NCBI GenBank assembly: GCA_045576135.1
Contig: JAZNFU010000272.1
Location: forward strand, 1 to 26,291
Direction of reading: 5' to 3'
Length of the DNA stretch: 26,291 nt
Source: Eubacteriales bacterium
GTDB lineage: Bacteria; Bacillota; Clostridia; Oscillospirales; CAG-272
In this document: positions 22,966 to 26,291 of the stretch, in pieces
Layout of the letters: each line of letters begins with the position of its first letter
Numbering within the stretch: position 1 is the first letter of the stretch
Translations under genes and position numbers: made by a program
Notes under the pieces: generated by a model
What the model was told of the DNA's origin: nothing
Database searches by the model: none
The model's input: the letters and a program-made list of their open reading frames with translations, nothing else

Positions 22966-23005
22966 AAAGCGAAGATGCCACCGCATTTTACGGCATCTTC
23001 GCTTT
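22966..23005. terminator. Bidirectional terminator, perfect 14-bp stem
   Basis: AAAGCGAAGATGCC-N12-GGCATCTTCGCTTT between convergent genes. Confidence 0.8.
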
Positions 23006-23150
23006 GAAATTTTGCGGAAAATCCACCCCCTCGTTGAAAGATTAAAATATCGGGAGGATTTAATTCTTTTTCGTTAAAGTGGTGATAAAGTGCTCCGCGC
23101 ATTTTGTAAAACGCATACACGCGGCTAAAGCTTTGAGTATACTTGAAAGC

Positions 23151-23501
23151 TTATTGATTTTTCAGCGTTGAAACCGAAGAAACAAGCATACGGCGGAGCT
23201 CGATGCATTTGCTGTGAAAATCTTTAAATTCCGCTTCCGAAATAGAGTTCGTATCATAGAGCAGCACAAGCCAATACTCGCTCTCGTTGCATTCCTTGAG
23301 TGCGATTTCAAACTTGGAAATAAAGTCCTTTGTTCCTTGAGCGTATTGCGCTTCGTAAACGTTTGCACCAACGGAAGTTCCACTGCGAAGGAGTTGGTTT
23401 GTCAAAGCGGCTTCAACGCCGTTTTGTTTTAAGGTTCGGCAAAGAAAAACAATATCTTTGGCAAAGTCTTTAGATTTGTTTCTCAAAATACTGTCCGACA
23501 T
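23151..23501 (-). CDS. Four helix bundle protein (23S rRNA IVP / Avd-like family)
   Basis: 116 aa, KSKDFAKDIVFLC...LTNQLLRSGTSVGANVYEAQYAQGTKDFISKFEIALKECNESEYWLVLL, the family pattern (QxxRSxxSxxANxxE...DFxxKxxIAxKExxETxYWL); GAGG RBS. Confidence 0.9.
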   Translation of the reverse strand: MSDSILRNKSKDFAKDIVFLCRTLKQNGVEAALTNQLLRSGTSVGANVYEAQYAQGTKDFISKFEIALKECNESEYWLVLLYDTNSISEAEFKDFHSKCIELRRMLVSSVSTLKNQ

Positions 23502-23514
23502 AATAAACCTCGAA

Positions 23515-23712
23515 GTTTTAAGTTTAGAGTTATGAGTTTGGCGATGCCAAACGTTATGAATTCACTGCGTGAAAGTTATGAGAGTGCTTTGCACTCGTTA
23601 TGATATGATTGCCTGTCTAACTTCAAACGCGGCGAAGCCGCTCATAACTGCGAGCTTTGCGAGCATCATAACTACGCGCAGCGTATCATAACTTGCCGTC
23701 AGGCAATCATAG
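23515..23712. repeat. Inverted array of GTTATGA/TCATAAC heptamers separated by short variable hairpins
   Basis: GTTATGA at 23529, 23553, 23575, 23597; TCATAAC at 23642, 23666, 23686 and TCATAG at 23707; preceded by GTTTTAA-GTTTAGA (23515-23528). The intervening segments are hairpins (see findings). Confidence 0.92.
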
Positions 23713-23721
23713 TTGATTGAA

Positions 23722-23748
23722 TGGGAATAAGCCGCAGGCTTATTCCCA
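23722..23748. repeat. Perfect 12-bp hairpin with GCA loop flanking the array
   Basis: TGGGAATAAGCC-GCA-GGCTTATTCCCA. Confidence 0.85.
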
Positions 23749-23854
23749 CTCGCTTAAATCAGCATTATTCTGAGTGAAATTAGGTATTTTAACGTGCTTT
23801 TTTCAGATAATTCGACCTTCTTTTTCCCCATAATCTATGGAGTCTTTGAAAAAA

Positions 23855-23882
23855 CGGTATCAAAATGGTATCAACGATACCG
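23855..23882 (-). terminator. Probable terminator of the membrane-protein gene, containing GGTATC repeats
   Basis: CGGTATC / GATACCG stem followed on the minus strand by TTTTTT; GGTATCAA repeated at 23856 and 23867. Confidence 0.55.
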
Positions 23883-23955
23883 CCTAAAAACATATTTTTT
23901 CTGTTGTAACTATTGTACCATAACAGTAGAATAAATACAAGAGGTTTGCTGAAAA

Positions 23956-25305
23956 TTAGCGCAATCCTTTCTTTGCCTTTTTGCTTACGAGCGTTACGAG
24001 TAAAGCAAAATAAGAAAGCACGATTATTTCCACGATGAAATGATAGATGTTGACTTGCAAGATATCTACTTGTGTGCGTAAAAAGAGTTCAACACCGCAG
24101 AGAACAGTGAAGGCACCTACCGCAAAACGATGAGCTTTGTGGATGAGATTATCTTTCACAAGAGCAAAGATGATGAGCACAAATCCTACAATGTTCGCAA
24201 GGCTTGAAACATCCTCAATGGAAACATTTATCGTAGAGAAAAGCTGATTGATGACATACGCATCTTGACTCATTATCTCAGGCATAAATACGAATATTAG
24301 ACTACCAGAGATCTGACCTATAAATATTGACAGAGTTTCGCTTAAGAGAATTGTTACACAAGCAGCCGAGAGAAGCTTATTTTTACGTACTCTTTGATAT
24401 TCATATCCGAAATATGTGAGGAAAATCAGAAGCGCAAATTTGATATAAGTATCAAGTGTAGACATTATCGAAACAAGCTGTACGGCAGTTGCCTGCGATA
24501 TTGCCGTGGAGTCAACAAAAATTACACCGGCGGTGTAAACAGCATATATGAAGATTGTAATTACTAAAGAGATAATAGTAGATTTTGATATTGAGTTTTC
24601 GCTATTGTAACTACATTTTTCAAGGAATGAATAAAGGAGATACAGAAGTGCAACCTCTATGAAAGCTCCAACATAATATGCCAACGTATCCAAGAGGATC
24701 TTAAGAACATGTGCGGAATCCGGCGTTTTTATTGCAATGACTCCTATAAAAGATATTGCAGATATGCCGAGGAAAGCCAATGCGTAAAGAGAAAGTTTGC
24801 CTATATTCTTAAAAACGCCTTTATAATAATGGTCGTTATCCATAATGGAATAATTGAAATAAATATCATTCTTTCTAAAACTGTAAACTACGTATATTCC
24901 TATAACGAAAAGCAATGTATAAATAATGCCACTTGGCCCATTGTCTGCAAAATTAAGAGGTTTACCAAGATACAGAACAATAGGCAAATCAAAAGCGAAA
25001 GCCCCCAAAGCTATTTTAATTAGTATTGAAGCAGCTCTGCTATAAAACCTATCTTCTTCCAATTCCGTTCGTTCGTCTTTGTAATATATAAAATGGCGAA
25101 CAAATCCAATTATTAAAGTGATAATCGTACTAATATAAATAGCCACATCGGGAAGCGCAAACCAATAATAGCGGACATTAGATGCATTTCTCAATAAATT
25201 TGCGCAGTGAATTTGTGCAAGTACAAATGTGACAATAAAAGTTATCAGAATAGCTCTTTTTGCTATTTTCCCTTTCACATTTTCAATTCTTTCATCGTAA
25301 AACAT
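23956..25305 (-). CDS. Polytopic membrane protein of unknown function
   Basis: About 449 aa with roughly a dozen hydrophobic segments and a DER motif repeated in the N-terminal part (YDERIE, KDERTE). ATG 25305 follows GGAGGG, 1 nt after the HTH stop (ORF track starts at 25329). Confidence 0.8.
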   Translation of the reverse strand: MFYDERIENVKGKIAKRAILITFIVTFVLAQIHCANLLRNASNVRYYWFALPDVAIYISTIITLIIGFVRHFIYYKDERTELEEDRFYSRAASILIKIALGAFAFDLPIVLYLGKPLNFADNGPSGIIYTLLFVIGIYVVYSFRKNDIYFNYSIMDNDHYYKGVFKNIGKLSLYALAFLGISAISFIGVIAIKTPDSAHVLKILLDTLAYYVGAFIEVALLYLLYSFLEKCSYNSENSISKSTIISLVITIFIYAVYTAGVIFVDSTAISQATAVQLVSIMSTLDTYIKFALLIFLTYFGYEYQRVRKNKLLSAACVTILLSETLSIFIGQISGSLIFVFMPEIMSQDAYVINQLFSTINVSIEDVSSLANIVGFVLIIFALVKDNLIHKAHRFAVGAFTVLCGVELFLRTQVDILQVNIYHFIVEIIVLSYFALLVTLVSKKAKKGLR

Positions 25306-25721: not shown

Positions 25722-25890
25722 TGCTAGATGACAGCGTGACTGTTCGTCGTTGCGTTGAAGCATATTTCCGGTTCGGTTTTCGGTTATATGTGGAGCATCG
25801 TATCGGGCGGGTACTGCCGCAGACCGAATAGGTATCTACCGAAATAAAGTACCGACCAAGCCACACGAAAGTGTGGCTTTCTCATTTGTT
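25722..25890 (+). ncRNA. Candidate structured RNA (leader or antitoxin) between promoter and terminator
   Basis: About 165 nt, GC-richer than its flanks, bounded by a promoter and a terminator, with several complementary segments (see findings). No known family recognised. Confidence 0.55.
25858..25890 (+). terminator. Intrinsic terminator-like hairpin upstream of the PBECR4-like gene
   Basis: AAGCCACAC-GAAA-GTGTGGCTT followed by TCTCATTTGTT; ends just before the AGGAG RBS. Confidence 0.75.
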
Positions 25891-25902
25891 AGGAGTGTCG
25901 AA

Positions 25903-26291
25903 ATGTGTCTATTTTTACAAGCTACAACCGCATGGACGGATTTAATGACAACAGAATATATCTTTATCCTTGGTTATAAGAACAAAGAATACAATCTCCA
26001 TTTGATTTTTGAAAAGGCTAATTTTTATCATTTATCTGGTATGCACTATGCCAAAGATGTTGATTTTAAAATTACCCCCAACAAAATGTATGGTGAAAAA
26101 CTAATTGATTTGATAGCTTCAAATAAAATTAATGCATGTGACATTGAAAAATCGAAAAATTGGGAGAAAATAAAGGGGCGGCTGGAAGGCATCATTACTT
26201 TGAAAAAAATTTTAGAGTCGAATTTTTTAATTTATCGATTCGCCCCAAACAAACTTGGATTCAACTCTGAAATTTCAGCAAAGTACTTAAT
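25903..26291 (+). CDS. PBECR4-like putative endoribonuclease (3'-truncated by window edge; absent from ORF track)
   Basis: AGGAG RBS, then an uninterrupted frame MCLFLQATTAWTDLMTTEYIFILGYKNKEYNLHLIFEKANFYHLSGMHYAKDV...NWEKIKGRLEGIITLKKILESNFLIYRF...FNSEISAKYL. The Y-x-I-x-LG-x-K...F-x-K-x-x-F-x-HL-x-G-x-H pattern is what I recall for PBECR4 (BECR-fold) proteins; not confirmed by search. Confidence 0.68.
   Translation, partial: MCLFLQATTAWTDLMTTEYIFILGYKNKEYNLHLIFEKANFYHLSGMHYAKDVDFKITPNKMYGEKLIDLIASNKINACDIEKSKNWEKIKGRLEGIITLKKILESNFLIYRFAPNKLGFNSEISAKYL

Follow-up and report, generated by a model that had tools for sequence, protein, structure and literature searches.

What is the array of short repeated words and hairpins that stands directly upstream of a small four-helix-bundle gene in this DNA, and is it connected with the gene? 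The window (the whole stretch analysed, 26,291 nucleotides of a CAG-272 genome, a metagenome assembly that is 62.8% complete) holds, by our reading of positions 23515-23712, four GTTATGA words, a 25-nt core, three TCATAAC words and one TCATAG. The words are spaced by hairpins of 13 to 17 nt, each with a different sequence, and all loops are 3 to 4 nt long and closed by C-G. The earlier note had described the array in these terms, and both the words and the hairpins were recovered where it had placed them. GTTATGA or TCATAAC occurs nine times in the window, seven times within 164 nt, when 2.3 occurrences are expected and none of 100 shuffled sequences reaches nine; chance can therefore be excluded as the origin of the array.

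The end nearest the gene is formed by two degenerate words, GTTTTAA and GTTTAGA (23515-23528, TCTAAACTAAAA), a block that is near-invariant across 11 cassettes and includes, on the gene strand, the -10-like hexamer TAAACT (23526-23521). The gene-side half (23529-23603) then consists of GTTATGA words at 23529, 23553, 23575 and 23597 and three perfect hairpins (23536-23552, 23561-23573 and 23582-23596). Within the core (23604-23628), TATGATTGCC is complementary to the far end of the array and is followed by the degenerate words GTCTAAC and TTCAAAC; the first positions of the core, TATGATTGCCTG (23604-23615), are the exact complement of CAGGCAATCATA at the far end (23700-23711). The far half (23629-23712) carries four hairpins (23629-23641, 23649-23665, 23673-23685 and 23693-23706), with TCATAAC at 23642, 23666 and 23686 and the terminal TCATAG at 23707. 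The second of these hairpins, which is imperfect, is really a direct repeat, GCGAGC-N3-GCGAGC, that can fold only with mismatches. This module (GCTCGC-N3-GCTCGC on the other strand) was found again in several word families and is the sole spacer of conserved sequence. Beyond the array lies a long hairpin with a GCA loop and 15-nt arms that are 93% complementary (23719-23751).

The gene (23151-23501, minus strand) encodes a 116-aa four-helix-bundle protein that matches PF05635, the 23S rRNA intervening-sequence protein family, with 92 bits against a cut-off of 33.8 bits (Pfam E 3.4e-26). Its nearest solved relative is PDB 2RLD (E 6e-26), which was deposited with five chains. A model of the protein bound to itself scored 0.80, with 0.00 for the best control; of proteins whose state is known, 21 of 30 homo-pairs but none of 23 single chains passed the same mark, the pass may reflect memory of solved relatives, and the score is silent on nucleic-acid binding. 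PF05635 proteins and Avd are homologous according to a review (PMC10053308). Orthologues of 77-84% identity are present in 12 other genomes of the genus. An in-frame TAA stop was seen in two of the 13 genes of the clade that uses GTTATGA (G025:C144 and G077:C51), and G025 is among the array-richest genomes, with 50 matches. Only 13 nt separate the array from the start codon (leader 23502-23514, minus strand), and this leader contains a ribosome-binding site read as GAGG (23508-23511). The cassette is closed by an intrinsic terminator (22966-23005, minus strand) with a 16-pair stem and a T run, which could also be used by the convergent alginate lyase gene.

On the gene strand, the array edge contains a promoter-like site, with TTGGCA (23550-23545) lying in the first hairpin and TAAACT in the degenerate words. 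The pattern TTGGCR-18-TAAACT occurs in 8 of 12 gene-linked arrays versus 1 of 24 gene-less ones (Fisher p 1.3e-4), although the site is a weak one in the GTTATGA clade, agreeing at 9 of 12 positions. Four sister clades have a near-consensus promoter immediately next to the last word, its -10 box ending 18-24 nt before the ATG, and a terminator at the far side of the array, which in these clades is thus located upstream of where transcription begins. The arrangement is different in the tandem-heptamer clade, where the repeats stand between the promoter and the ribosome-binding site, i.e., in the 5' leader, and are thus transcribed.

Is the neighbourhood of gene and array systematic? PF05635 genes are present in 108 of the 121 genomes of the genus, and we sampled the 30 best-scoring loci, picked blind to repeats, plus the second copy in the same genome as the window. 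A repeated 7-nt word was found no more than 330 nt upstream in all 31 loci, as a two-half inverted array of words and hairpins in 18 of them and as plain tandem heptamers in the other 13. The words of the two-half arrays differ by clade: GTTATGA; GTTATAT or GTGATAT; GTGAAGT; ATGATGC; GTGATGT; ATGAATT; and ATGAAGC. The six to eight copies of the word within one array are all identical. Mapped onto the protein tree, on which the GTTATGA clade has a support of 100/99, the word changes 11 times, the minimum being 10 and the mean of shuffled assignments 26.5, an agreement that is also expected from plain co-descent. The array keeps its distance and orientation across PF05635 clades that are just 45-50% identical, and the order of modules (edge words, core, far end) is constant across cassettes. 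Gene, array and the 15-bp hairpin (about 23141-23751) form a contiguous block that was found again, 71-81% identical, in at least 10 further genomes whose left flanks are unrelated. Array and gene are co-inherited as one unit, and the pairing with an Avd-like gene that the earlier note had seen at this one locus is a systematic one. No published description of this link was found in the literature searched. The second PF05635 gene of the same genome (on contig C283, with its upstream region at ~1900-2200) is 51% identical to the first and has a two-half array of ATGAATT and AATTCAT; with its different word, this cassette offers a natural specificity control for binding.

In most of the further genomes that have this block, the cassette is located just downstream of guaA, and at four loci (L163, L164, L166 and L168) the long hairpin overlaps the stop codon of a gene ending in ...PKPIGTIEWE, which is GMP synthase. 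The hairpin in the window still holds these last guaA codons (E-W-E-stop), and guaA itself is absent at the site, which indicates that this copy descends from a guaA-linked one and was moved together with the hairpin. Homology of the window with the guaA-linked loci ends at the base of the hairpin. The neighbours in the window are the alginate lyase gene and a membrane-protein gene. No clean empty site was found: G077, the closest genome for the membrane-protein gene, is not syntenic in this neighbourhood, and the 3' end of guaA in the genome analysed is unassembled. At L160 (G077:C107) and L161 (G013:C40), the orthologue of the membrane-protein gene faces a small convergent ORF composed almost throughout of N and Q. 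The stretch beyond the hairpin, upstream of the cassette (23752-23955, minus strand), is non-coding and conserved, being 72-91% identical in G013, G070, G008, G094 and G115. It has a promoter-like TTGTAT-17-TGgTACAAT and a small terminator-like GGTATC hairpin (23881-23867) with a T run. It may represent a leftover leader or a small RNA transcript, and may or may not belong to the cassette. It matched no Rfam family, and an LhrC-like match at 23847-23964 was dismissed as chance, with 29 bits against a cut-off of 110. Elsewhere in the window, a drum RNA (RF02958) was detected at 25750-25857 on the plus strand (58.3 bits, cut-off 43), directly upstream of a PBECR4-type nuclease gene (25873-26289, plus strand) that runs off the window.

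The arrays are far more widespread than the genes that share their word. Pairs of GTTATGA words spaced by a hairpin occur in 71 of the 121 genomes of the genus, with 0 to 64 per genome and practically none in a reversed control, whereas the GTTATGA gene clade is present in just 13. The earlier note had named two findings that would refute it, namely homologous genes lacking arrays, or arrays of a known repeat family that occur throughout the genome independently of the gene and are not bound by its protein. Arrays independent of the gene do exist, as 58 genomes have GTTATGA arrays and no GTTATGA-clade gene; genes lacking a repeat were not seen among the 31 sampled. The richest of the genomes lacking a gene of this clade, G034, is 99% complete and has 64 matches, and both of its PF05635 genes use another word. 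Copy number was not significantly related to gene presence once the cassette's own words were removed (p 0.075). Single genomes representing 24 other families of the order had no GTTATGA array, and the named records that contain the array family come from uncultured Clostridia living in the guts of ruminants and other animals. The majority of arrays have no gene and are placed at gene ends, some adjoining terminator hairpins. The genome of the window itself uses at least seven different array words and has two further GTTATGA arrays, one of them short and beside a terminator. The other (C85:1045-1160, L002) is one-directional and has five hairpins; it begins 3 nt beyond the stop codon of a gene for a small acid-soluble spore protein, and two terminator-like hairpins come after it. 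One-directional arrays were also found at L017 and L027. Several near-identical three-unit composites were observed in G139 (C13, C16, C20, C33, C63 and C73), and in G114 at least 18 scattered copies of one hairpin, TTGCCC-N3-GGGCAA, each between two GTTATGA words; both sets look like recent bursts of copying.

Outside this family, a scan for triple GTTATGA recovered mostly plain tandem heptamers of Bacteroidota and cyanobacteria. These are unrelated; of 105 GTTATGA tandem-heptamer loci beyond the Clostridia, only 2 lie within 400 nt of a four-helix-bundle gene. At two Bacteroidales loci, L057 and L094, plain tandem GTTATGA heptamers are separated from a four-helix-bundle ORF by 11 and 43 nt and apparently lie 3' of it, which differs from the upstream placement in the Clostridia genus.

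Throughout the family, the hairpins keep their shape and not their sequence. Among 115 distinct segments between words, 69 (60%) are perfect hairpins over their full span, compared with 0.65 (0.6%) in shuffles, and these 69 use 43 distinct stems, bearing out what the earlier note had suspected from the window's few hairpins. Template-switch correction, rather than selection, could maintain such perfect palindromes. Loops and stems carry a signature of single-stranded DNA, one of the forms that the earlier note had considered: the triloops are often of the GNA type and G·T pairs are scarce. Across 1083 stem pairs of 13 word families, G·T amounts to 0.55% and A·C to 0.74%, when G·U reaches 8.9% in the tRNAs of the same genome. 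An A·C on one strand is a G·T on its complement, so that either strand of the array stems has wobble pairs at roughly one-fifteenth of their frequency in these tRNAs. Mismatches counted on the gene sense strand have no strand bias (40 G·T versus 38 A·C); the GCTCGC-N3-GCTCGC module is the apparent source of most of the 50 C·T mismatch pairs in the stem count. Of 140 triloops, 75 read as C-G-closed GNA on the TCATAAC-type strand versus four on the other strand, and the favoured strand flips at the core. The mini-hairpin d(GC-GNA-GC) is unusually stable in single-stranded DNA. The scarcity of wobble pairs, the GNA triloops and the position of the promoter downstream of the array in the sister clades together favour a DNA element over an RNA. 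The complementarity of core and far end, a feature that the earlier note had missed, gives an 11-pair helix that all 11 aligned cassettes retain, L170 with a double change from T-A to C-G, and similar complementary pairs are also present in other word families; this helix could form in RNA or in single-stranded DNA. The nested rod of stacked junctions that the earlier note had envisaged does not extend to the whole family, given the one-directional arrays and a consensus fold that favours local hairpins plus the far-end/core helix.

The earlier note could assign the array to no named class, a statement that has to be revised. Gut-1 (RF01706) was published in 2010 by Weinberg et al. as a candidate non-coding RNA from human-gut metagenomes only, with no partner (PMC2864571), and Rfam lists it as RNA. 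It matches more than 1100 times in 86 of 101 genomes of the genus. Other arrays in the genome of the window score 50.3, 48.0 and 46.4 bits, the gathering cut-off being 50; the Gut-1 matches in this genome are two-half arrays with the words GCGATAT, GTGAAGT, ATGAAGT, TTGAAAT and GATGATA, and at least seven of the Gut-1 matches listed lie 150-250 nt upstream of a PF05635 gene on the same strand. The array in the window has the Gut-1 architecture, with three to four short GC-closed hairpins strung on a constant 7-nt linker. It differs from Gut-1 as described in having another word, DNA-like stems and an evident partner gene, and Rfam returned nothing for it at gathering or E-value thresholds, nor any Gut-1 match in 23450-23800 at E up to 10. 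Judged by architecture, the element in the window is best classed as a word variant of Gut-1 that the RF01706 model does not see.

Other known systems resemble the array in part. REP, BIME and REPIN sequences are also palindromes dispersed between genes, frequently at gene ends; they, too, form clusters in which the orientation alternates, and their copy numbers differ widely among relatives. However, REP elements have a conserved hairpin sequence and a GTAG tag, whereas the present family has differing stems and a constant 7-nt word. Membership in REP/RAYT was rejected on these grounds, the 69 perfect hairpins having 43 stems and the tag being a word that varies by sub-family. Y1 transposases of the IS200/IS605 type (PF01797), present in 36 of the 121 genomes overall, are absent from the genome of the window and from the ten array-richest genomes. 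With 23S rRNA intervening sequences and Avd, the cassette shares the PF05635 family and the plan of a small gene amid hairpin-rich non-coding DNA. It is not such an intervening sequence, since it lies between protein-coding genes and Rfam finds no rRNA in the window, nor was a diversity-generating retroelement (DGR) recognised, there being no RVT_1 match in the assembled part (62.8%) of the genome and no template or variable repeats seen. Compared with MITEs and insertion sequences, the array has inverted halves and a copy number of 0 to 64; no end duplication was recognised, and neither a clean empty site nor a transposase was found. The TAACTGA heptamer repeats of Beggiatoaceae are likewise 7-nt words upstream of genes but have no hairpin spacers, and their description leaves PF05635 unmentioned (PMC4679880). 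One PF05635 clade of the genus, with its plain tandem heptamers in the 5' leader, resembles such intergenic heptamer repeats. Integron attC sites were rejected because each hairpin is flanked by heptamers in direct orientation, which do not match GTTRRRY/RYYYAAC; CRISPR, because the repeats are just 7 nt long; and a coding repeat, because none of the periods (24, 22 and 22 nt) was taken to suit a reading frame, the set not being divisible by three throughout. Like the array, the BOX elements of Streptococcus pneumoniae are modular and non-coding, with end modules that are fixed and internal units that vary in number; their units are conserved in sequence, and no partner gene is known to be linked to them. 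BOX and the present array are not known to be related in sequence.

What, then, could the array be for? We give about even credence to the proposal of a small selfish cassette, of which the array would be the non-coding arm as well as the control region, and whose encoded oligomeric protein probably reads the word. The cassette would consist, in order, of the distal hairpin, the array of words and hairpins, the promoter, the PF05635 four-helix-bundle gene and the terminator, and it would belong to a large family within one genus of uncultured gut and rumen Clostridia. The element would act mainly as DNA, its hairpins forming on an unpaired strand or by cruciform extrusion, as they are of the hyperstable d(GC-GNA-GC) type and intolerant of wobble. 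The Avd-like protein would then read the repeated word displayed between the hairpins. Three features point to the protein as the reader: identical words stand beside diverging hairpins; whole sets of words switch between clades; and at least seven words coexist in one genome, more than a single host factor could read. Binding would first regulate the gene itself, given that the last words and the last hairpin overlap its promoter-like site. The same contacts may also mark the element for copying or maintenance, in which case gene-less arrays would be non-autonomous relics. The main weakness of the proposal lies in the gene-less arrays of the 58 genomes that lack the matching gene, which fit relics of a lost autonomous copy and fit an independent repeat equally well. 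Against the idea of a selfish cassette stands the fact that the 116-aa helical bundle has no obvious catalytic site for moving DNA.

An independent repeat is the core of an alternative that we consider possible but doubtful, in which the array is a self-sufficient palindromic repeat of the REP/BIME kind, working as a terminator, an insulator or a protector of mRNA ends and spread by host recombination or replication slippage. The gene would then be a passenger that uses the array edge as its promoter, and its protein would not read the word. This would account well for the many gene-less arrays at gene ends, such as the one that follows the spore protein gene and adjoins terminator-like hairpins, and for the 58 genomes that have arrays and no matching gene. 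Adjacent identical units at G023:C4 and G076:C39 show that units are duplicated, as this alternative expects, and recombination between words could produce the identity of the words within an array. It does not explain why every one of the 31 sampled PF05635 genes has its array at a fixed distance and orientation, why constant words stand beside freely diverging hairpins, or why words switch as a set between clades. A further alternative, very improbable, is that the array is the footprint of repeated insertions of mobile mini-hairpins that target and duplicate the word, so that arrays would grow with no need of a reader protein. The G114 hairpin, scattered in at least 18 copies flanked by GTTATGA on both sides, is what such insertion would leave behind. 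No candidate enzyme was found, however, with Y1 transposases missing from the ten array-richest genomes, and neither the non-palindromic loops nor the fixed order of modules across cassettes agrees with it.

The array might instead be a structured RNA, either a leader or a non-coding RNA, in which the far-end/core helix closes a multiloop that displays GUUAUGA, or in which the two halves zip into a rod, and which is bound by the Avd-like protein as Avd binds DGR RNA. The folding energy is very low on both strands (z-scores of -7.7 and -7.3 against shuffles), the far-end/core helix is conserved and has its compensatory change, the repeats of the tandem-heptamer clade are transcribed, and window-type loci have a -10-like box immediately before the hairpin at 23719-23751, on its upstream side; the curation of Gut-1 as RNA by Rfam points the same way. 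These observations have to be set against wobble pairs some 15-fold below the tRNA level on either strand, mismatches unbiased by strand, loops that are mostly DNA mini-hairpin triloops with a polarity that flips at the core, and four sister clades whose arrays have a terminator upstream and the strong promoter downstream. We therefore hold an RNA to be decidedly unlikely.

If the selfish-cassette proposal is extended as far as it will go, PF05635 proteins in general, those of 23S rRNA intervening sequences among them, would recognise specific 7-nt words exposed on unpaired DNA between hyperstable GNA mini-hairpins; gene and array would form a new autonomous class of selfish element, with the gene-less arrays as its non-autonomous members; and Gut-1, although named an RNA, would in truth be a DNA element. 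We think this general form unlikely. The clade-specific word of each protein clade provides a simple test of reading by the protein, as two cassettes that differ in their word are available within one genome.

The link between gene and array bears on two families at once. Since its publication in 2010, Gut-1 has lacked any assigned organism, gene or function, and the scarce wobble pairs and GNA triloops raise doubt whether a family curated as RNA works as one. PF05635 proteins abound, and their role is understood solely for Avd in DGRs. With the two brought together, both of these orphans would gain a partner.
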